Sequence record: MT446409.1
Length of the DNA stretch: 53,453 nt
Source: Escherichia virus TH37
Direction: 5' to 3' (one strand)
Position 1 is the stretch's first letter. Every line of letters begins with the position of its first letter. This document shows positions 13,671 to 44,764 of the stretch, piece after piece. Below the pieces are notes generated by a model. That model worked only from the letters and a program-made list of their open reading frames with translations, was not told the DNA's origin and made no database searches. The translations under genes and the position numbers were made by a program.

Positions 13671-16600
13671 TTATCTACGTTCCATTGCACCATTACCCAT
13701 GTTGATTGTTTGGGTAACAGTTTGACCGTTAGGAGTTGACACGGTTGCAGACGCTTGCTTGTTGTTCACAGTAGCTTTGACTTCAACGTTAACTACAGTG
13801 GCCTGGGTCTGACCATAAGACAGTCCATTTCTGGTGAAGCCAGTTGCACCTTCCGCAATAGAATCGCCCTGAGAAGCCCATTCACGGTACTTCTTGACGC
13901 GGTTCTGTGCCTGTAGAGGAACAGCATTGAGCCAGTCGGTTCCGTGTTTGTTGATAGCATCATCAACAGTTCCAGCACCATCCGTATACGCCGCCATAGC
14001 CTTCTCAGCGTCACCATTATAACGCTTGAGCATTGCATCGTAGTAGTCACGACCAACGCGAGCACGCTCTTCCAGAGAGTTATCACGGGCAGGTGTAACG
14101 CCAAATCCTGGGTCACGGGAAGTTGAATCAAGAACTTGCATACGACCTTTAGCACCAGTCGGTGATGTGACTACCGAACCGTCTGCGTTCAAATCGCGGT
14201 TCCCTGACTCTTCTCCTGCGATAAAGTCATAAACATTACGTTCTGCATCGGCTGCACCGTTGGAGGTCATACGCATCACTCTGGCTGCGTCACCGCCTGC
14301 CTCAATAAAGGTGCTGCCGTATGAGATTGCAGCTTGCGGAACAGCGTAACCAGGCAATACCCCAGCACGCTCCGTCTGCGCGATTCCTAGCTGTGCAACG
14401 CCTTCGGCATAGTTTGAGTCGGCCCCACGCTGAACGTTCTCCTGAGCCTCGCCCATGCTGTATTCTGTGCGGTCATAGGCACGAGCCATGCCGTCCAGTC
14501 CAGCCATTTGCATAGCGCCAGCGATACGCGCCTGACTCCAGCCCCGTTCCTGACCACGTTCACGCATTACCCGCGCTAAGGTCACAGGGTCGCCCTGTGC
14601 CTGCCTAATGTCGCCAATGGTGATAAGGCCACGGGTTCCCTGAACAATGTTCACAGCGCCGCTGGGGTCGCCATTTAGGAGGGTGTTATAGGCACTATGT
14701 GTGGTTTGATTCAGTCGGTTGGCTTGCTGGGAATTAAGTCCTAACATCTCCATGCCCTGTGACATAGAAGAGTATTCGTTAGGATTATTTACACCAGCAT
14801 CTAACGAATTGCCATAGAAGTCGTTCAGACCTTCCAGAGCTTCGTTACCAATTTGGGTAGCACCAATAGCCATACCAGCGACACGACCCCACGGAGTCAT
14901 CATCATGGCATTCATAGCGCCATTGGATAAAGAGCCAATACTGCCACCAGCTACGCCAGCAGCTAATGCCCCACCCATGCGACCGAAGTCATCGCCAAAA
15001 CTGCCACCAGCTTGCCACCCACGACGCCCACCACCGCCACCAGAACCACCACCGCTAATGCCATAGCTACTAGCATCAATGTTGTCCCAGAAGCCGCCTG
15101 AGCGCCCACCGTCGCCACCGCCGAAATCTGCATCCTGACCACGGAGCTTGTTTTCTTCCTGTGCTGCGAGGATACCTTTCTTAACTGACACTGCCATCAG
15201 GTCATTGCCAGTTGTGCTATCAGCGCCAACAGCAGAGGCTGTAGCAGCACCAACTCCAGCATCGGTACGGTTGCCTATGAATGGGTCATCAGGTGTGCCA
15301 GCAGCAGGAGAGTAGCCACGATTTGACCTCTGCTTAACATCCTTCCACAGGCCGTCACCAGTCATGGCAGCACGAGCACCCTTGATTAAATCATCATTGG
15401 ACAAGTCTGGATTAGCTTCAACAAACTCTCGACCAGCATTAAGACGACCAATAACAGAATCAATCTTATCTTTGTTGCGGTCGTACCATCCTTCATCCTT
15501 GTCAATCCACTCCGACTTCGTGGTATCGCCGATGGTTTGAGAAAACAATGCGCGCGAACGACCAGATACAAGCATCCCAAATTGAATTTGGTCCATGTAA
15601 TCTTTATGGTCACCCGCAGATAAGTTGGCAAACTTGCCAGCCCTTTGAGGGTTCTTGTGTTCCCAAATCGCGTCATCGCCGATAAGACCATCTGGGGAAT
15701 ACATGAACGACGGATAATTGTCATTTGTAATTGCGCCAGCTTGCTCAATGTCGAATCCAAATTCTTTGGCTACACGGTTACGAGCAATTTCTTCAGTTCG
15801 GTGACCAGCTTCGAACATTCTTTGGGTAAATTCGCTTGGTCCTTTTCCGCGTTGCAGGCCAACTTTATCAACCATTGCAGCCCAAGGTCTGGTATATTCG
15901 TTGTTGCCAAGGAATGAACCAACAGTTGAGCCTGTAATGTCATATTGTTTACGGAAGTCTAACCACTCCTGAGTACCCTGTTCCATATTATGAAACTTGA
16001 TTGGGCCTTGTTGTGGTTCAGGCTGAGGAACAGCGGAATCCAGGTTTGCGATTGCAATGCTCTCACGACGAGAGCGAGCAGAGTTCCAACTCGTTGGTGA
16101 ATCAAGCTGTGCAATAAACTCTGTAGATGGATTTAATTCAACAGGTCCAGTGTTTCTTAGACGTTCAGCAGGGTCGAAAGTCTTACTGATTTCAGCTTCA
16201 TTATATTGGTGAGCATTCTCAAGTACACCACGAATAGATGCACCAGAGTAACGAGGGTCATCACCAATATCTTTCTTTAGGTTGTCATAACCAGAACGAG
16301 CATCTGCAAGGTCTGTATAACGAGATGCAGAATCAAGAATCAAATCTCGGTCAGAAGATTGAGTGCGATATGCGTTCATCCCCCGTTCTGAACCACCAGC
16401 ATATACCTTAGCAGCAGATTTAACTACGCCAGATACATCTTGATATAAAGATTTACTTGCATCAGACCAACCTGGGGAGCCAGATAATGATGCAGATAAA
16501 GAATATTCAGCTTTAATGCCAGAACCCATAGAGCCTAAAGGTAGGCCAGATGCGTTAAGCGGTTGTCGGGGATGTTGAATATCACCAACAATAGATTCAG

Positions 16601-17345
16601 AACCAAGTTGAGGAAGAGAATCCATGTATGAAACTCTTGGCCCCGACTTATTACCTACATTCATTGCAGATACAGCAGCAACTTCACGGAAGTTTTGCGG
16701 CAATTCTGATTCTAAACGTTTGGCTACACGATAAACATCTCGTGCATAGCGGTCTGGGTCGTCATATTGTTGACGGTCAACATACATATGAGCAAGATAG
16801 CCCATAGATTTGGCAATATCTCCACGGTTTGTAGAGTATTCACCCATAATGTCACCAGCGTAATGACCAGGAAGTTCCGGCATTATATCTTGATGACCTG
16901 CCAGCGTATCACGCATGTACGCATTAAGCATTCCCCAATGACCTTCTGGTTTGTTTGGGTTTGCTTTAGGCATGTGCATCCACACATCATCGGTGGATAC
17001 ACCTAATTTCTCCATGTAGGCATGAACAGCTTCTACATGGTGACTTGGACCGTTCATTGCAGCATGGAATGTTTCAGTAAGCCCAGCACCAGAAATCATC
17101 TGTGCAACGTGAGCTGAGTCTGAAATCATGTCGGAAGTGCCATAAGAGATGCCATCATCTTCTGTATAGGTTTCTTCCATAAGCTGTGAATTTGTTTCCA
17201 TCCAACCAGAGGCAGCACTTGATTCAAGTTGCTGTGCCATATCTCGTTTGCGCATACCTGGATTGAATGACAGACCATATTGAGCACCTAAGCCAATCAA
17301 TTCGGCTTCGGACATTCTCATTAAATCTTTTATGTTATTAGCCAT
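13671..17345 (-). CDS. Tape-measure-like large tail protein with internal lambda-Exo/YqaJ nuclease domain, Gly-rich segment and C-terminal lytic transglycosylase domain
   Basis: 1224 aa between GT chaperone and baseplate genes; residues ~450-640 QGTQEWLDFRKQYDITGSTVGS...SPDGLIGDDAIWEHKNP...YMDQIQFGMLVSG collinear with lambda Exo; residues ~1040-1130 EESGNRDL...GAKGRMQV SLT-like. Confidence 0.6.
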   Translation of the reverse strand: MANNIKDLMRMSEAELIGLGAQYGLSFNPGMRKRDMAQQLESSAASGWMETNSQLMEETYTEDDGISYGTSDMISDSAHVAQMISGAGLTETFHAAMNGPSHHVEAVHAYMEKLGVSTDDVWMHMPKANPNKPEGHWGMLNAYMRDTLAGHQDIMPELPGHYAGDIMGEYSTNRGDIAKSMGYLAHMYVDRQQYDDPDRYARDVYRVAKRLESELPQNFREVAAVSAMNVGNKSGPRVSYMDSLPQLGSESIVGDIQHPRQPLNASGLPLGSMGSGIKAEYSLSASLSGSPGWSDASKSLYQDVSGVVKSAAKVYAGGSERGMNAYRTQSSDRDLILDSASRYTDLADARSGYDNLKKDIGDDPRYSGASIRGVLENAHQYNEAEISKTFDPAERLRNTGPVELNPSTEFIAQLDSPTSWNSARSRRESIAIANLDSAVPQPEPQQGPIKFHNMEQGTQEWLDFRKQYDITGSTVGSFLGNNEYTRPWAAMVDKVGLQRGKGPSEFTQRMFEAGHRTEEIARNRVAKEFGFDIEQAGAITNDNYPSFMYSPDGLIGDDAIWEHKNPQRAGKFANLSAGDHKDYMDQIQFGMLVSGRSRALFSQTIGDTTKSEWIDKDEGWYDRNKDKIDSVIGRLNAGREFVEANPDLSNDDLIKGARAAMTGDGLWKDVKQRSNRGYSPAAGTPDDPFIGNRTDAGVGAATASAVGADSTTGNDLMAVSVKKGILAAQEENKLRGQDADFGGGDGGRSGGFWDNIDASSYGISGGGSGGGGGRRGWQAGGSFGDDFGRMGGALAAGVAGGSIGSLSNGAMNAMMMTPWGRVAGMAIGATQIGNEALEGLNDFYGNSLDAGVNNPNEYSSMSQGMEMLGLNSQQANRLNQTTHSAYNTLLNGDPSGAVNIVQGTRGLITIGDIRQAQGDPVTLARVMRERGQERGWSQARIAGAMQMAGLDGMARAYDRTEYSMGEAQENVQRGADSNYAEGVAQLGIAQTERAGVLPGYAVPQAAISYGSTFIEAGGDAARVMRMTSNGAADAERNVYDFIAGEESGNRDLNADGSVVTSPTGAKGRMQVLDSTSRDPGFGVTPARDNSLEERARVGRDYYDAMLKRYNGDAEKAMAAYTDGAGTVDDAINKHGTDWLNAVPLQAQNRVKKYREWASQGDSIAEGATGFTRNGLSYGQTQATVVNVEVKATVNNKQASATVSTPNGQTVTQTINMGNGAMERR

Positions 17346-17972
17346 TGTCTTCTTCTTTAGGTTTTAATTCATTACGCAAATCAAGTATTGCGTGGAAGGT
17401 CAACAAATCCATAATAGAGTAGGTCCCATCTTGTAACTCTTTAAGAGAACAGAGTGAACTGTCCTCTATTACAGGACGGTGCAGGAAGTATTTTATTTCC
17501 GGGAACTTTGCAGTTAAATCGTTTCCGGACTCGAATTCTTCTGCTCGGCCATCTTGGATGCTTCCACCGCCTCCAATCGTCTGCGTTCGTTGAGTTCGAG
17601 CCCTTGCTTGAAAAAATCAAGGAAGTTCGATTCCAAAACAAATGCAAATACATGGTGCATGAGCATCAAGTTGCCGTTGTATTTCATCTGCATAGTGCGT
17701 GGAGTAACTTCGACACCATCAATGGTTGCCATACACACTACACGTTTAATTAATTCTGTTACTTCATTGCTCGTCCCACCTTGCTGCATTAAATAAATAA
17801 TGTCTGCAAAGTTATATTTATTCTCAACGAACGGGAAGATTGAAGTTCCGAGTTTCTGAACAAGCTCGACCTGGAGGTCAAGAGCCTGGCTGGCACCCAA
17901 TTGACGAGTACCAACCAAGACAACATCACCAGAGTCGGCTTGTAACTCGCGTTGACGAAGTTCACAAGCCAT
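17338..17972 (-). CDS. Tail assembly chaperone GT-like fusion made by programmed -1 frameshift at 17610-17616
   Basis: Heptamer T_TTT_TTC in the G frame; the -1 frame is open for 89 codons and its stop overlaps the tape measure ATG (17343-17345). Confidence 0.5.
17514..17972 (-). CDS. Tail assembly chaperone (gpG-like, short form)
   Basis: 152 aa between tube and tape measure genes; contains slippery TTTTTTC near 3' end. Confidence 0.5.
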   Translation of the reverse strand: MACELRQRELQADSGDVVLVGTRQLGASQALDLQVELVQKLGTSIFPFVENKYNFADIIYLMQQGGTSNEVTELIKRVVCMATIDGVEVTPRTMQMKYNGNLMLMHHVFAFVLESNFLDFFKQGLELNERRRLEAVEASKMAEQKNSSPETI

Positions 17973-17987
17973 GCTCTTACCTTAATG

Positions 17988-18443
17988 TTATACGCCGATT
18001 TCTGGATACTGACCAGTTACGATGGTGAGGCGCTCTACAAAGATAGCCCACATGTTGGATGTAAAGGTTACACCACGAACAATAGCAGGCTGTTGTAGGA
18101 TTGCACCGTTAACACCGTTAACCAATACGTCGCCCATCTTGTCAACCAATTGCAACTGCAAAGGTTCCCAGAGGGATTTGTTACCAGACAAACCAGTTGC
18201 ACGAGTAAGCTGTGCACGTTGGTAAAGGATTTCGTTCCAATCTGCCGTTTGCAGCAGTGGGAAAGTAATAACCCCAGACTGGTCAGCCGTGGTTGCTACA
18301 GCAAGTTTGCCGTAAGCATCCATAACAGGAACATGCTGTGGCACGTTGTAGCGTGCCGTAATTACAGATTGCCCTGCTTGAAAACCGTCTACACGAGCAC
18401 CGTCAATCAGGAGGTCTGTATTATAAAACGAATATTGCTTCAC
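17988..18443 (-). CDS. Tail tube protein
   Basis: 151 aa immediately downstream of sheath gene. Confidence 0.5.
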   Translation of the reverse strand: MKQYSFYNTDLLIDGARVDGFQAGQSVITARYNVPQHVPVMDAYGKLAVATTADQSGVITFPLLQTADWNEILYQRAQLTRATGLSGNKSLWEPLQLQLVDKMGDVLVNGVNGAILQQPAIVRGVTFTSNMWAIFVERLTIVTGQYPEIGV

Positions 18444-21170: not shown

Positions 21171-21610
21171 TATGCCAACTTATCGTAGAGGGCCAGTTTA
21201 GCTTCTTCCGGCATATCTTTGATGTTCACGCCGTTAGCAACCAACACTTTATCAATGTCAGGCATACCAACTTTCACGCGTTCAACAATAGACAGGCTGC
21301 CAGCTTTGATAGCTTCTTTGACCAGGTTTACTTTACGAGTTTTACCCGTGGTGTAGTATTCCTTAATCACGAGTGCTTCTTTGCCAGACTTAACGTCAGC
21401 ACCGATGTTGGAGTCGTCCAGCTTAACTACTTCTTCACGCATCACTTCAACTTCAGTGACAGAAGAGGTAATTGCTTTATACACTTCATCATCAATTTCA
21501 ACAGTTGCACCGCCAGGAATGTGTACAAAATCCAGTACAGGTTTGCCAGATTTATCCTTCTTGTAGAAGAAGAATTGGAGGTTGCGAGTTTCGTTGTTCT
21601 TAAGCTGCAT
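21170..21610 (-). CDS. Hypothetical virion protein
   Basis: 146 aa directly after capsid gene. Confidence 0.3.
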   Translation of the reverse strand: MQLKNNETRNLQFFFYKKDKSGKPVLDFVHIPGGATVEIDDEVYKAITSSVTEVEVMREEVVKLDDSNIGADVKSGKEALVIKEYYTTGKTRKVNLVKEAIKAGSLSIVERVKVGMPDIDKVLVANGVNIKDMPEEAKLALYDKLA

Positions 21611-21628
21611 TACATTTCTCTTAAATTA

Positions 21629-21646
21629 GGCGAGATTTCTCCCGCC
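21629..21646 (-). terminator. Terminator-like hairpin just downstream of major capsid gene
   Basis: GGCGGGAGA-AA-TCTCGCC hairpin on minus strand followed by TAATTT. Confidence 0.35.
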
Positions 21647-21653
21647 ATCAGGA

Positions 21654-22661
21654 TTAAATACCGGAGTTGATGGAGATTGCTGCCGGATACATTGCCTGGA
21701 AGCCGGCGAAACGGCCACGACCAGGTACTTCATAAACCAGGCCATGCAGCTGAACTGGTTGCCAAGTTAACGGCAGCGGTTCACGCAGACGGAAGGTACG
21801 GTTGCCCATAGCTTCACGGCACACAACTACGAAGCAATCTGCACCAGAAGCACCGTGACCTTTGATTGCGTTCAGACCCTTGATTTTGTCGCGGGAGTTG
21901 ATGAACTGGTTGTTGTCAATGAAGAACTGACCGATAGTCTTGTCAGACTGCTCAGAACGTGCGGTGTTGAAGATGTACTGCTCATGCTCAACAGGCATCC
22001 AGATTTCAGAAGGACGCATGATTTTCAGAGTAGATGCGTACATTGCAGACACGGCAGTGGTCAGGTCAGCAATAACTTCGGTCGGAGTCTTCTCGTTCCA
22101 CTTAGTAGAATTGCTAGCACCCTGAGCAACAGTTGCTTTGGTAACGTCTGGGTTTTCGAAGAAGCCAACGAAGCCGTTAGCCTGGTCGCCGTACCATGCA
22201 GCGGAGTTAACATACTGCTCGTAACCACGAATCGCAGCATTTGCTTTACGAGTTTCCAGCGGCAGACCAGTTACAGCAGCAGATGCTACTTCATCAATGT
22301 CGTAGTCGAATGCAGTACCAACAGACTTAACTGTTACGCTGTATTCTTTACCAGAAATGCTGGACTTCGGCAGGTCGGTTGCACGGGCGTTGATTACCTG
22401 AGCTTTACCAACATGGTTGTATGAACGGTAGGTCAGCGTGTTAACACCAGCGCCGCCAGTAGTATCAACACCGAAAGCAGCACGAGCTTCCAGTTCAGGA
22501 TACAGGGTGTCGTAAGTTTGAGCTTCAATGAACTCAAGCTGACGTTGAAAGAACACTGCGTCGTCGTCATTCAAAACAACGGTGCCAGAGTCCTGGATAC
22601 GGGTGATGGCATCATTCAGTTCAAATTCAGAACCGTCGGCCAGTTTAATCATCTTTGGCAT
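21654..22661 (-). CDS. Major capsid protein
   Basis: 335 aa; position after scaffold and decoration-like genes, followed by hairpin; lambda gpE-like size. Confidence 0.6.
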   Translation of the reverse strand: MPKMIKLADGSEFELNDAITRIQDSGTVVLNDDDAVFFQRQLEFIEAQTYDTLYPELEARAAFGVDTTGGAGVNTLTYRSYNHVGKAQVINARATDLPKSSISGKEYSVTVKSVGTAFDYDIDEVASAAVTGLPLETRKANAAIRGYEQYVNSAAWYGDQANGFVGFFENPDVTKATVAQGASNSTKWNEKTPTEVIADLTTAVSAMYASTLKIMRPSEIWMPVEHEQYIFNTARSEQSDKTIGQFFIDNNQFINSRDKIKGLNAIKGHGASGADCFVVVCREAMGNRTFRLREPLPLTWQPVQLHGLVYEVPGRGRFAGFQAMYPAAISINSGI

Positions 22662-22705
22662 TAAATTTATTCCATTAGGCGCAGATTATTCTACGCCAAT
22701 TAAAC

Positions 22706-23472
22706 TTAAGGGTGCGTAATGGTGATTGCTTTAGTAGCAGTTACACCAGATGCAGTCTTATGAGTTGCTTTGATTGTTGCAGAGGTCGCAGTACCAATCG
22801 TCGCAGTTGCAACAGTTACAGTACCATTGGCCGCCACAGTTACTCCAGTGACCGCTGGGTCAACAGTGAAGTTGTAGTCACTTGCAACAGAGTTTGCAAA
22901 CGTAAACAGTTTATCAACAGTTACGGTAGCATTTGTAGTTGAAGCATCAGCAGTCACAGCCGCCGCTACCGCAGTAACGGTCGGTGTTGGAGGTGGCGTT
23001 ACGACTTTGGGACTACGTTAATCATGACCGGAACAACATCACCAGCAGCAGCCGGATAGCGAAGTGCAGTCAGGTTGGTTGCCTTAGTATAGCCAGCGCC
23101 AACACCACCAAATTGACCAGTGGCAGATACGCCAATGTCTTTATCGGTGATTGCAGTAACCAGTTTAACCATGATTGGGCCAGACAGCATAACACCCAGA
23201 GGCCAGCCAGCTTTGATTGCAACAGTGCCGTCACCAGGACGAGTTGCGGATTCGATGTTAATCTGGCGCATAGTAATGCCCAGAACAGTGCCGTCGGCTT
23301 CAATACCAGGCTTAACCTGATTAGAAGCAGTACCCTGAACAACAGCTAAACCAAAGTTAGCCATTTCAGTTTCAGCATTGAAAGTCAGGCGCTGAGAGTT
23401 AGTGGTAGCCAGGCCATATTGCTCACCCGCATATGCTGCACCAGTATTAATAGACCAATCTTGCTTTGGCAT
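22706..23472 (-). CDS. Frameshift-extended form of the decoration-like protein with C-terminal Ig-like (Big_2-type) domain, via -1 frameshift at 23002-23008
   Basis: C_CCA_AAG heptamer; -1 frame opens just after an in-frame TAA and runs ~98 Thr/Ala/Val-rich codons (TVTVDKLFTFANSVASDYNFTVDPAVTGVTV...) to 22706. Confidence 0.5.
22999..23472 (-). CDS. Putative head decoration/capsid accessory protein (short form)
   Basis: 157 aa immediately upstream of major capsid gene; ends ...VVPKS with CCCAAAG slippery site 2 codons before stop. Confidence 0.4.
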   Translation of the reverse strand: MPKQDWSINTGAAYAGEQYGLATTNSQRLTFNAETEMANFGLAVVQGTASNQVKPGIEADGTVLGITMRQINIESATRPGDGTVAIKAGWPLGVMLSGPIMVKLVTAITDKDIGVSATGQFGGVGAGYTKATNLTALRYPAAAGDVVPVMINVVPKS

Positions 23473-23481
23473 TGTCTTACC

Positions 23482-24432
23482 TTATAAAGAGTTGAAGCGT
23501 TCTAAACGACGTTTGTTAGCTTCTTCGGAAATAGAAACTTTAGGCTTACGAGCTTCTGAATCTTTCTGAGCAGTAAATTGCATAGATTGATTCAGGGCAT
23601 CGCCCAAAGTAATGGAATCACAATCTTCAAGTGCTGCATCGAAACGAGCGGAGATATAATCTTCACTCTTGTCGCTGAAATCCTTGTCATGCAATTTATT
23701 AACTACAGCCAACTTAACTTCCGAATCGGACTTGCCGGAGAAATCAAGACTGGAGAACTCGTCGCCAAGACGGGCCACATCAATGAGAAGTGCTGTACGA
23801 GCAACAACACGTTTGTCTACCTCAGCCTGAATGGCTTCATCGGATAGTCGTGCAGTTTCTGCATCAGCAAGTTTCTGCTCAAGGGTGTTAATCTTGTCAA
23901 GCGCTGCATCACGCTCTGCTTCAACAACATCAAAGGTTGCCTTATCAACAATGGAAATCTCTTCACCAGAGTCACCAATGCGAGTAGTCTGAGCACGACC
24001 ACGAACAACAATTGCAGCATGGTTAGGGATAATACGAACTTTGTCGAAGTCTGCATCAGCATCTTCTGCAACAGCCAATTCTGCATTATGGCCTAGGGAG
24101 ATTTGGTCAACACCAGAATCAACTAGTCGAATAGCTTGCTCGTCATTCAAAACGATTGATGCAGCCAAGAAAGAGCCGTCTGCAATTGGACGACCTTCAA
24201 TAAACCCTTTCTGGAGTTCTTTGTTGTTCTTGATATTGACGTCATCTTTTGGATGACCGATAGTAACCGGAATTGAACGACAACCTTCAATGGTTGCTTC
24301 ATCAAATAATACTTCCGGCTTGGTGCGAACACGGCAAATAGATTCTGGGTCCAGATGTTTTGCAATCTCACCAAGTTCTTTCGCTTTGTACAGCATAATG
24401 CCAGTACGAGCGATGGTGCATTCTGCAATCAT
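23482..24432 (-). CDS. Putative scaffold / prohead protease-like protein (start uncertain)
   Basis: Long acidic coiled-coil-like ORF between portal and capsid genes; the listed ORF start at 24720 overlaps portal by 205 nt, so an internal ATG at 24432 is proposed. Confidence 0.35.
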   Translation of the reverse strand: MIAECTIARTGIMLYKAKELGEIAKHLDPESICRVRTKPEVLFDEATIEGCRSIPVTIGHPKDDVNIKNNKELQKGFIEGRPIADGSFLAASIVLNDEQAIRLVDSGVDQISLGHNAELAVAEDADADFDKVRIIPNHAAIVVRGRAQTTRIGDSGEEISIVDKATFDVVEAERDAALDKINTLEQKLADAETARLSDEAIQAEVDKRVVARTALLIDVARLGDEFSSLDFSGKSDSEVKLAVVNKLHDKDFSDKSEDYISARFDAALEDCDSITLGDALNQSMQFTAQKDSEARKPKVSISEEANKRRLERFNSL

Positions 24433-24514
24433 TTCGCCAGAGTCACGTAAACGACGGGTCGTCAGAGTAGCTTTGTCGGTTAACAAAACTACTTCATTCA
24501 CGGTATCTTCGTCG

Positions 24515-25831
24515 TTAAGCTGAACCAGGTTTTGGCTTTGCTTCACTTGCGTTACCCTTTTGGATGTTAGGAGGTTTAGGATTTGGCTTTCCGAGGTCAC
24601 AAGTTCCGAACACGCCCGAATGGAACATGACTTCGTTTGCAACTTCTGTAGTAATGGTTCCATTGTTAACCAACAGGTCAACAGCGAATGCCAAATCTTT
24701 AGCTCGCTTCGCTTTCTCAACGTTGGATTCAGGGAAGATATCTAACCATTCATAGTCATATTCTTCAATGCCAAAGTGCGCCTGGACAATCTTATCTACC
24801 ACATCTAAACGTGGGTCAAAGACAGAAGTCTGCAAGCCTGTCAACAAGTCGATATAGTTTACGAGGTCAGATTCGCCCGTAGCATTCATACCGTCTGGAG
24901 ATGCAGAAAGGAAACGTGTAGCCGGAATACCAACTGCGGCAGCAACTATCTTTAAGTATTCCCAAATCAAATCTTTCACACCAGATAGTGCAATTGACTT
25001 GGTATCATACTTCTCAGTGTTGTCGAGAATTAAGACGTTGTAAATACTTTTAGCCAGCTTCATTAGTTTGAAGCGCTTCATCACAGCAGCTTCACCTTCC
25101 GGTGATGTAAGCAGAGATTGTAAGCCTTCTACAGTTACCACATCAATTGTGGCTTCTTGAGCAAGGCTGGCAGCAGCAGCAGCAGTTGTATAGAATTGGT
25201 CAATCGTTTTCAGCAGTGGAATAAGTACCGAATCGGAATACCACATGTTACGTTGGAATTCGAACAGCGGCAGTTCAGTACCCTCGAACCGAAGGAAACG
25301 AGTGTAGTGGATATAGCCGGGATACCCCGCCAAAGTGTAAAACTCTGGCAAACCATAATGAGGACTCAGAGGGTCCAACACCATAGTTCCTGCGGCAAAT
25401 AAGCGTGAGCGGTCAATAACTCTCATGGATTTAATACATCCAGTCTTCAAGTTATCCAGACGCAATGGTGTATCAAGTTTACCCGTCCCTTTTAGGTCGA
25501 GCAGAACAAACGAAGTCCCATACAATCTGGCCCATTGATACGCCTCACGGAACAGCTTACGAATACGAAGTTTCTTATCCGCTTTGCGTCCTTCTTCGGT
25601 ATCAATATGCCGCCACTTACGCGTCATATCTTGAGGAATAACGGTACACACTTTCTGTGCCACCCAATCCTCACGGAAGCGGTTCATAAGTTCGCGATAG
25701 TTCGCGTTCTTGTTTGAGAAAGTCCACTGGTTAAAAGTAGACTTATCTGCCTGACCGCCCAACCCCGTTACAAGGTTTTCTAACCCATCTGCAACTTTAA
25801 CAGAGAGATTATTTTTCTTCTTGGAAGTCAT
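24515..25831 (-). CDS. Portal protein
   Basis: 438 aa directly downstream of terminase large subunit; size and position. Confidence 0.55.
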   Translation of the reverse strand: MTSKKKNNLSVKVADGLENLVTGLGGQADKSTFNQWTFSNKNANYRELMNRFREDWVAQKVCTVIPQDMTRKWRHIDTEEGRKADKKLRIRKLFREAYQWARLYGTSFVLLDLKGTGKLDTPLRLDNLKTGCIKSMRVIDRSRLFAAGTMVLDPLSPHYGLPEFYTLAGYPGYIHYTRFLRFEGTELPLFEFQRNMWYSDSVLIPLLKTIDQFYTTAAAAASLAQEATIDVVTVEGLQSLLTSPEGEAAVMKRFKLMKLAKSIYNVLILDNTEKYDTKSIALSGVKDLIWEYLKIVAAAVGIPATRFLSASPDGMNATGESDLVNYIDLLTGLQTSVFDPRLDVVDKIVQAHFGIEEYDYEWLDIFPESNVEKAKRAKDLAFAVDLLVNNGTITTEVANEVMFHSGVFGTCDLGKPNPKPPNIQKGNASEAKPKPGSA

Positions 25832-44254: not shown

Positions 44255-44764
44255 CTAGATTTTGTTTATGTATGCAAACTCGCCATGATACCTGAGTGCA
44301 GCAGCATTGTACGCCCTTGCCGCATCTTCTGGAGTATTGAAAGTGCCAAGGCATCTTCTTACACCATTCTCGGATATTCTGGCAACGTACTTGCCTCTAC
44401 TGCTTTTGTGGACACCTTTGTATCCAGAGGTGTTGGAGGTCGACACTCCTACGTTCATCAAGTTTTGTTTTGCAGACACATCACGAAGATTCTCAATTCT
44501 GTTGTTAAGGATATTCCTATCAACATGGTCTATAATCTTTGGGATATACCCATGATGTAGCCAGAATACTATCTGGTGAGCTTTCCATTTTGTACCTTCG
44601 ACAGATACTCTTAAGTACCCATCACTACACACATACCCAGCAACGTCTCCCGTACGAGCTTTTGGGCTAGTGGTTTGGGTTCGAATAAGGTTGCCCGTTT
44701 CTGGGCAATACCTTAAATATTTATCGAACCTTGGATTATTTCGGGAGTTCGAAATGAGGTGCAT
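44255..44764 (-). CDS. HNH-AP2 homing endonuclease
   Basis: 169 aa; HNH_3-like GYLRV...HQIVFWLHHG...IDHVDRN and AP2-like GYKGVHK...GKYVARI...GTFNTPEDAARAYN. Confidence 0.65.
   Translation of the reverse strand: MHLISNSRNNPRFDKYLRYCPETGNLIRTQTTSPKARTGDVAGYVCSDGYLRVSVEGTKWKAHQIVFWLHHGYIPKIIDHVDRNILNNRIENLRDVSAKQNLMNVGVSTSNTSGYKGVHKSSRGKYVARISENGVRRCLGTFNTPEDAARAYNAAALRYHGEFAYINKI

Follow-up and report, generated by a model that had tools for sequence, protein, structure and literature searches.

A very probable -1 ribosomal frameshift adds an Ig-like domain to the capsid cement protein of Escherichia virus TH37 and related Chaseviridae

Phage structural proteins that acquire a C-terminal immunoglobulin (Ig)-like domain by ribosomal frameshifting represent an established class (Fraser et al. 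2006; reviewed in PMC5009743), whose members include T3 10A/10B, the major head protein of Lactobacillus phage A2 and the Listeria phages A118/A500 (-1) and PSA (+1) (PMC5009743). A locus of this kind is found in the DNA of Escherichia virus TH37 (sequence record MT446409.1; 53,453 nucleotides (nt), the whole of which is here called the window), where a 157-amino-acid (aa) open reading frame (ORF), the cement gene upstream of the major capsid gene, ends in the slippery heptamer C_CCA_AAG. We consider it highly probable that this gene yields two proteins from one messenger RNA through a -1 slip at C_CCA_AAG, and that the longer one, a fusion of the cement protein with an Ig-like domain, is incorporated into the head and displayed. 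As in the T3/A2/Listeria class, one gene would give a major short and a minor C-terminally extended product, the Ig-like domain is joined through a linker, the shift site lies at the very end of the 0-frame ORF and the domains look horizontally mobile. Unlike in that class, the carrier is a separate cement gene located between the protease and capsid genes and not the major capsid protein, and across the clade at least five cassettes, unrelated to one another, are found behind one site.

Two further systems are close to this arrangement. In the gpG/gpGT pair of lambda, a low-level -1 shift fixes the ratio of the two products at ~30:1 (PMC5009743). The lambda site, G_GGA_AAG, is likewise an X_XXA_AAG motif near the end of the upstream ORF, it is active without a strong stimulator, and exactly the same heptamer is used by one relative of the window (L041; L numbers are our names for loci). 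Unlike the lambda proteins, which are chaperones and not virion components, both products are here expected to be structural, with the extension serving as a display domain. The Hoc protein of T4 is also an Ig-like display on the head surface, dispensable for assembly and with a proposed role in weak glycan adhesion, and a natural deletion of the domain in one relative of the window is consistent with dispensability here. Hoc, however, is the product of a separate gene, has its own capsid-binding domain and is present at full occupancy, one per hexamer, whereas here a cement subunit would carry the domain and recoding would determine its dose. With regard to the site itself, that of phage A2 is presumably C_CCA_AAA, the same heptamer as in the relative L030, and A2 has a stimulatory stem-loop, while none was found in the clade of the window.

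All coordinates are window positions and the genes are read on the minus strand. The argument rests on the following features:

22999-23472, minus strand: cement (decoration) protein gene, 0 frame, 157 aa, 16.1 kDa, assigned from the ORF, a PF22758 match and a fold match.
23020-23018, minus strand: TAA that closes the -1 frame upstream, two codons before CCC, read from the sequence.
23011-23005, minus strand: slippery heptamer C_CCA_AAG, the proposed -1 shift site (0-frame Pro155-Lys156), from sequence, register and conservation.
22999-23001, minus strand: 0-frame stop TAA, one codon past the heptamer, read from the sequence.
22706-23005, minus strand: -1 extension of 99 codons plus TAA, open from GTC at 23005 to TAA at 22708-22706.
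22976-23005, minus strand: VVTPPPTPTV, the Pro-rich linker with which the extension begins, from the translation.
22709-22957, minus strand: predicted Ig-like beta-sandwich domain, the stretch of the listed 83-aa GTG ORF, from AlphaFold2 and Foldseek.

The 3' end of the 157-aa ORF reads ...ATT AAC GTA GTC CCA AAG TCG TAA. An earlier note on this DNA had recognized C_CCA_AAG in the X_XXY_YYZ register, which is correct, and had placed it at 23002-23008, which is wrong by 3 nt, as the heptamer actually spans 23011-23005. Its description of the -1 frame proved accurate: the frame opens after its own stop two codons earlier (the TAA at 23020-23018), reaches 22706 after 99 sense codons (about 98 had been claimed), is rich in Thr, Ala and Val (61 of 99 residues) and gives on translation the junction that had been predicted, ...VVPK/VVTPPPTPTV.... 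Because of the upstream TAA, the change of frame is confined to 16 nt (23017-23002), inside which the heptamer is the sole slippery motif. The predicted fusion, made of 0-frame residues 1-156 and the extension, would be 255 aa long with a mass of 25.7 kDa versus 16.1 kDa for the short form, and its junction would read ...MINVVPK/VVTPPPTPTVTAVAAAVTADAS.... A tryptic peptide, VVTPPPTPTVTAVAAAVTADASTTNATVTVDK, is predicted within the first 16 residues of the extension and begins upstream of every possible start codon, while digestion with Asp-N or chymotrypsin is predicted to give the junction peptide DVVPVMINVVPKVVTPPPTPTVTAVAAAVTA. The heptamer alone is not over-represented, with 8 copies of CCCAAAG in the window versus 6.8 expected, and the copy at 23011-23005 is the only one that is in register where a long ORF ends and is also followed by a long -1 ORF. 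Since the heptamer by itself gives no signal above chance, its significance was drawn from the relatives. One of the other copies, at 44537-44543 (minus strand), is also in register, in the middle of a 169-aa ORF (44255-44764) where the -1 frame closes after 7 codons; it is probably incidental, and a slip there would produce a truncated product only.

A comparison was made of 42 distinct sequences of the locus, taken from GenBank phages, IMG/VR, JGI metagenomes and Logan/ENA/NCBI assemblies; the IMG/VR scan contributed 5 near-identical loci only, and the useful diversity was supplied by GenBank phages, by scanning JGI metagenomes and by looking up exact proteins. Motif and extension are found together in 30 of the 42 loci, each having an in-frame N_NNA_AAR 0-1 codon before the stop, with its Lys codon as the last or penultimate 0-frame codon, followed by a -1 ORF of 92-191 codons. 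An extension without the motif was found in none of the 42. Neither motif nor domain is present in 11 loci, which are those of the Nefertitivirinae Spp001, pAh6-C, BUCT696 and VPs20 and of seven metagenomic relatives whose in-frame tails and intergenic gap are short; two of these 11 have a -1 frame that simply continues into the capsid gene. The remaining locus, L027, keeps the motif and has lost the domain.

L027 (OGVK01000246.1, ~1960-2012) retains CCCAAAG, the 0-frame stop and the first linker codons (PKAVTPPAPAPT...) but lacks the Ig domain, and the capsid gene stands directly next to them. This natural deletion suggests that the Ig domain is dispensable.

The composition of the site is as constrained as its position. 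CCCAAAG is found in 24 of the 42 loci (23 of the 30 extension loci and L027), in flanks that have diverged. The codon before Pro is NNC in 20 of 20 sequences, though the residue that it encodes varies (V, G, I, L, A), Pro is CCA in 20 of 20 and Lys uses AAG in 19 of 20; the background in the remainder of the cement and capsid genes is 24% for C-ending codons, 35% for CCA and 32% for AAG. Synonymous sites are saturated between genera, with synonymous divergence (dS) of 1-2, and positions that remain fixed at the site in spite of this are what selection on re-pairing of transfer RNA (tRNA) predicts. In parallel, 72 of 106 clusters of cement homologues end in PK or PKx and, as read from the listing of their C-termini, about 15 more end in xK or xKx. 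Distant relatives vary upstream of the core, using G_GGA_AAG (L041), C_CCA_AAA (L030), G_GTA_AAG (L038, L039, L042), G_TTA_AAG (L040) and G_GCA_AAG (L017, Proteus phage Myduc), so that the family-wide core is A_AAG (A_AAA in L030).

A -1 ribosomal slip at CCCAAAG very probably occurs in this phage group. In the proposed mechanism, most ribosomes would read ...GTC CCA AAG TCG and terminate, giving the 157-aa cement protein as the major product, which by homology with Pam3 gp6 and E217 gp24 would form trimers at the three-fold and quasi-three-fold axes. A minority would slip back one nucleotide on C_CCA_AAG, with tRNA-Pro re-pairing to CCC in place of CCA and tRNA-Lys to AAA in place of AAG, and would then translate the Pro-rich linker and the Ig-like beta-sandwich. 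The resulting 255-aa fusion would co-assemble via its cement moiety and show the Ig-like domain outside the head. The signal would consist of the slippery site and the 0-frame stop 0-1 codon downstream, without a conserved RNA structure. Among -1 heptamers measured in E. coli, C_CC.A_AA.G is the most efficient (PMC4066793), and it is listed as highly shift-prone in a 2016 review of recoding (PMC5009743).

A ribosomal shift may also occur when a single tRNA-Lys, in the A site or, during slow decoding of the stop, in the P site, slips on A_AAG; in that case CCC would only aid P-site re-pairing in this lineage. Such a slip would fit the position of the 0-frame stop, always 0-1 codon past the motif, as well as the loci in which the A_AAG core alone is kept (L038, L039, L042, L040 and Myduc) and which still have -1 Ig ORFs of 93-110 codons, and A_AAG tetramers are by themselves shift-prone in E. 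coli (PMC4066793, PMC5009743). We nevertheless hold it to be unlikely, since all seven nucleotides are invariant in the window and 23 other loci, including the C that ends an otherwise variable codon, which argues for selection on P-site re-pairing, and since the G_GGA_AAG of L041 and the C_CCA_AAA of L030 are canonical heptamers too. Tandem slippage of tRNA-Pro and tRNA-Lys is thus the most likely mechanism in the window. Because distant relatives use non-canonical sites, strict tandem slippage does not account for the entire family, and those sites call for a single-tRNA slip to be considered as well, with the nearby stop perhaps contributing.

The extension is under purifying selection in the -1 frame. 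In particular, the window-type cassette (11 sequences from five genera, Nei-Gojobori method, 54 pairs) has a median ratio of nonsynonymous to synonymous divergence (dN/dS) of 0.12, and its variable sites in that frame number 45/37/92 at the three codon positions of 95 codons. A program that lists ORFs mechanically reports this region as an 83-aa ORF starting with the GTG at 22957, inside the -1 frame. A separate gene read from this start, or by termination-reinitiation, would give a free Ig-like protein, and this is how ORF finders and several GenBank records present it (ST32 gp56; Y2 gp67, 'Ig domain containing protein'); the GTG at 22957 is in itself compatible with such a gene. The earlier note had already remarked that this ORF has no independent start signal, and the relatives agree, offering no ATG, no conserved GTG/TTG and no Shine-Dalgarno (SD) sequence. 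Indeed, a search of the extensions for ATG returned one only, in the middle of the Myduc domain; the position of the first GTG/TTG varies between codons 9 and 80, and in seven loci (4HA13, phiA050, Fifi451, Aioli, L029, L030 and flopper) it falls mid-domain, at codon 51-80, where initiation would cut the domain; and no SD-like sequence was found before the candidate GTG/TTG starts. Annotated starts vary between records, gene callers having picked six different N-termini that give products of 43, 70-72, 83, 87, 90 or 142 aa, or none, and a joined coding sequence was found in none of the 16 Chaseviridae records inspected. Moreover, all candidate starts lie downstream of the Pro-rich linker, which is conserved and shows -1-frame coding constraint, and it is not evident how a free 8-kDa Ig domain would attach to the virion. 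A separate gene is therefore very improbable.

The same shift site is followed by at least five unrelated types of extension, which are distributed as follows:

Window-type cassette: Carltongylesvirus, 4HA13, Faunus, Y2, Navette, phiA050.
I-set-like cassette: Berlingot, L026, L028, L038-L042.
Fifi451/L029 type: Fifi451, L029.
PM1/Aioli/L030 type: PM1, Aioli, L030.
Myduc type: Myduc.

Pro/Ala-rich linkers precede all of them. Extensions of 191 codons are found in flopper (L007/L035) and L025, which have two tandem window-type copies, and in L041, where two I-set-like domains stand behind G_GGA_AAG. Between Y2 and Berlingot, which belong to one species, and between Aioli and Fifi451, which belong to one genus, the cement and capsid genes are ~75-100% identical, whereas identity from the heptamer to the start of the capsid gene is only 22-52%. 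The unit of exchange therefore coincides with the stretch that is translated in the -1 frame, and comparison of these genomes indicates that recombination swaps cassettes with the shift site and the capsid gene as its exact limits. An in-frame cement-Ig fusion was sought with the 255-aa fusion (89 clusters) and with the cement profile (106 clusters) and none was found; all 106 cement clusters are 145-177 aa long, and thus none carries the domain in frame.

These observations bear on the possibility that the extension has no product, being either the decaying remnant of an in-frame fusion broken by a 1-nt insertion or deletion (indel) or an error of sequencing or assembly. A remnant would agree with L027, which has lost the domain and keeps the heptamer and a linker stub, and with the absence of the domain from the Nefertitivirinae and several metagenomic relatives. 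It is strongly disfavoured by the same frame offset in more than 30 independently sequenced genomes of at least six genera, by a dN/dS of 0.12 at a dS of ~1-2 with no stop codon in 92-191 codons, by the arrival of unrelated cassettes, at least five in number, always in this -1 frame, and by the lack of any ancestor-like in-frame fusion in the 106 clusters. As for transcription, productive slippage of a polymerase is not known to occur on runs shorter than about 7-9 A/T. Slippage of the phage T7-like or host RNA polymerase on CCC/AAA, with an indel in some transcripts, is hardly credible, even if chaseviruses encode a single-subunit RNA polymerase (PMC12842549) and transcriptional slippage is a known alternative route to trans-frame products (PMC5009743), since the homopolymer runs here are just 3 nt long and conservation follows the codon register (X_XXY_YYZ, AAG and not AAA, NNC), to which tRNA re-pairing is sensitive but slippage of a polymerase is not.

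Two proteins would thus be made by -1 ribosomal frameshifting, and the 0-frame one can be assigned with some precision. The 157-aa ORF matches the Pfam family Phage_cement (PF22758, 'E217 gp24/Pam3 gp6') with an E-value of 1.1e-16 and 61.7 bits versus a cut-off of 27, residues 4-152 aligning with profile positions 4-146 of 146. Its AlphaFold2 model, built with 35 homologues, has a predicted local distance difference test score (pLDDT) of 84.2, and its top Foldseek match in the PDB is the Pam3 cement chain 8hdt_G, with a query-normalized template modelling score (TMq) of 0.71 and an E-value of 3.3e-6, followed by capsid chains of HFTV1, T1 and FCWL1 (E 1e-5 to 6e-4) and then by the base of the phi29 head fibre, gp8.5. 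A search of PDB sequences with the cement profile gave no match, so that the solved relatives are remote in sequence and the relation to them is visible by fold only. Profile and model together identify the product as a beta-tulip cement protein, which makes more precise the 'capsid-associated protein' of the earlier note.

In Pam3, which has a 54.5-kb genome, 140 cement trimers occupy the three-fold and quasi-three-fold axes and are held via an N-terminal arm (PMC9942802), and E217 gp24 likewise forms trimers at the three-fold and quasi-three-fold axes (PMC10329688); for chaseviruses no solved structure was found. The 0-frame product shares family or fold, and the same gene order, with Pam3 gp6, E217 gp24, the T1 and FCWL1 decoration proteins and the phi29 gp8.5 base. 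In phi29 gp8.5 the same base fold carries an outward projection, which supports the view that the cement C-terminus may project outward here as well. To our knowledge, no trans-frame cement extension has been reported for T1, FCWL1 or phi29. None is described in the structural papers on Pam3 and E217 either, and where C-terminal domains occur in the proteins of these five phages they are in frame and on every subunit, unlike here.

The trans-frame domain was modelled separately from the cement part because a combined alignment (A1) misplaced Ig-only sequences on the cement domain. AlphaFold2 gives for the 99-residue extension an all-beta model of nine strands (pLDDT 83.6; predicted template modelling score 0.72), which joins the cement C-terminus through the Pro-rich linker. 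Among PDB entries, Foldseek places first the tail tube protein pb6 of T5 and gp8, the prohead capsid protein of phi29, followed by the DT57C baseplate chain 8hqz_p and many Ig domains of NCAM, Sidekick and Robo, with a probability of ~1.0, a TMq of 0.55-0.65 and E-values from 7.7e-3 to 0.1. The aligned ~100 residues of the T5 pb6 and phi29 capsid chains are, we assume, the Ig-like domains of these proteins. The proposal of an Ig-like domain, made from the letters alone, is thus sustained by the quality of the model and by its neighbours T5 pb6 and the phi29 capsid protein. In a profile check, which had also been suggested, sister cassettes at the same site match Ig_2, Ig_3, I-set and Big_2, and the window's own domain has no Pfam Ig match. 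When a profile of the window's domain was searched against 1.8 billion representative proteins, it found tandem repeats in giant proteins (35 in one protein of 5070 aa) as well as proteins carrying Big_2 domains; in one protein, P0112, a window-type domain is C-terminal, Big_2 is present and there are sub-threshold matches to tail tube families. Collectively, the term Ig-like is supported for the modelled fold of the extension, while the link of its sequence family to the named Pfam Ig families is indirect. With tblastn (the low-complexity filter having removed the first 30 residues), the extension found chaseviruses only. In addition, P0103, a 155-aa protein encoded on an ENA contig of 845 nt, shows 82% identity over 38% of the Ig extension and has the precomputed Pfam assignment PF02511; the ORF may be chimeric or wrongly called.

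Several results weigh against the proposed frameshift and display. The Foldseek E-values of the window's domain are modest (best 7.7e-3), and Pfam reports no Ig family above threshold on the window's extension, where GBD_Hemicentin alone appears at E 0.02, below the cut-off. The lineages compared are not independent, so that the codon-usage probabilities are illustrative and carry no formal probability. Sites such as G_GCA_AAG, G_GTA_AAG and G_TTA_AAG allow no canonical P-site tRNA re-pairing and yet have equally long -1 Ig ORFs behind them. Neither virion mass spectrometry nor reporter data were found in the ST32 and PP101 papers, and the trans-frame protein is a prediction. In addition, stretches of 45, 70 and 100 nt downstream of the site were folded in 15 phages and compared with dinucleotide shuffles, and no conserved downstream structure was found, the z-scores of the relatives ranging from +1.3 to -2.8; nor was an SD-like element found 10-14 nt upstream in the aligned flanks. 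Folding and RNAalifold thus gave no conserved downstream pseudoknot or hairpin of the kind that the earlier note had advised looking for. Finally, as 0.3-3.7% was measured elsewhere without a stimulator, the fusion may be rare.

The only structure near the site is a weak one:

22960-22984, minus strand: weak local hairpin, a candidate, 20 nt 3' of the heptamer, with an RNAfold energy of -15.9 kcal/mol and a window z-score of -2.3.

A classical stimulator begins 5-8 nt downstream of the heptamer (PMC4066793). RNAalifold, run on 11 type-A sequences, gave as consensus a hairpin of 5 base pairs (bp), whose energy is -5.9 kcal/mol and whose covariation term is +0.31, and a 5-7-bp hairpin lying 20-23 nt downstream was rejected as a stimulator, being too distant and having this covariation term and one compensatory pair. 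The pair in question is seen between the window (22964-22982) and phiEcoM-GJ1 (L002), where synonymous ACC/ACA and GCG/GCT differences compensate each other and change C-G to A-U; being a single event, this does not suffice to establish a functional structure. The sole conserved neighbour of the shift site is the 0-frame stop 0-1 codon downstream, present in every extension locus.

Because no conserved stimulator is present, a low yield is expected. In E. coli, C_CC.A_AA.G gives 54% frameshifting with the IS3 pseudoknot, ~0.3% unaided and at most ~3.7% when helped by 3' context (PMC4066793). By analogy, the efficiency in the window is probably ~0.3-4%, a few per cent or less, which would correspond to between a few and ~15 Ig domains per virion out of ~420 cement copies on a T=7 head, a copy number taken from Pam3 and from the ~62-nm head of PP101. 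The analysis shows the anatomy of the locus, conservation of the site across the family, coding selection on the -1 ORF, the lack of a start of its own, the Ig-like fold and the exchange of cassettes; the slip itself, its efficiency, incorporation of the fusion into the virion, outward display and a role in adhesion are inferred.

The constancy of this arrangement invites a functional reading. Since cassettes are always in the -1 frame, never in frame (0 of 106) and without an RNA stimulator, the shift site could be a conserved and selected 'socket' that limits dose and not an accident, with sub-stoichiometric display under selection and full occupancy deleterious. We put this forward tentatively, giving it slightly less than an even chance. 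If it is right, the phage would present a few adhesin domains on ~420 cement copies, and the slippery site with its adjacent stop would set the dose.

The locus lies in a block of head genes whose order on the minus strand is portal, DUF2213 protease/scaffold, 157-aa ORF, a gap of ~340 nt and major capsid protein:

24515-25831, minus strand: portal gene (PF06381).
23482-24720, minus strand: DUF2213 head protease/scaffold gene (PF09979, E 1.2e-30), upstream of the cement gene.
21654-22661, minus strand: major capsid protein gene (PF09950, E 4.9e-47), the right-hand boundary of the exchangeable cassette.

The 412-aa ORF at 23482-24720 (minus strand), which starts with TTG, overlaps the portal gene at 24515-25831 (minus strand) by ~200 nt; because relatives annotate ~354 aa, the true DUF2213 start is probably further downstream than the one listed. 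Over the region 21600-24800 the window is 98.8% identical in DNA to Escherichia virus TH25 and about 91% to phiEcoM-GJ1, and the region matches 64 phage records (Escherichia, Yersinia, Erwinia, Pectobacterium and others). The annotated relatives that were inspected are classified as Chaseviridae, subfamily Cleopatravirinae, and the genus Carltongylesvirus comprises ST32, phiEcoM-GJ1, Mangalitsa and flopper; on sequence identity, the window is assigned to a phiEcoM-GJ1-like coliphage of the Chaseviridae, Cleopatravirinae. One record, PP952070.1 (L037), is named 'Staphylococcus phage Pel53' with the host Staphylococcus hyicus and is 91.5% identical in the head genes to this group of Gram-negative coliphages; its host assignment looks doubtful.

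A second frameshift of another type is probable elsewhere in the window. The 152-aa ORF at 17514-17972 (minus strand) has an in-register T_TTT_TTC at 17616-17610, exactly where the -1 frame opens, and this frame runs 58 codons past the 0-frame stop, to 17338. The ORF lies between two others that were taken, by size and position, as the tail tube (17988-18443) and a tape measure of 1224 aa (13671-17345). The region 17338-17972 (minus strand) would thus encode a tail assembly chaperone of the G/GT type.

A search of the literature for a prior description, be it of a frameshift in Chaseviridae or of a cement or decoration protein frameshift with an Ig-like domain, returned the general class and not this case. 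The case is distinguished by its beta-tulip cement carrier, in place of a capsid or tail tube protein, by the perfect association of motif and domain across the clade, by the precise exchange of cassettes and by its absence from annotation and from the literature searched. A ribosomal_slippage join should be annotated for the cement gene throughout the Cleopatravirinae-like clade. The site also represents a ready position for low-copy display on a cement protein in engineering. The clade offers a natural series on what sets a low frameshift efficiency without RNA structure and on why Ig domains are often delivered by frameshifting, as it contains six heptamers, stops at +0 or +1 codon, at least five cassette types, two-domain duplications and one deletion. 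Relatives of the window are candidates for therapy or biocontrol against E. coli, Yersinia, Erwinia amylovora and Pectobacterium, and in such phages a displayed and rapidly exchanged Ig-like adhesin could affect adsorption, retention on mucus or plant surfaces, and immunogenicity.

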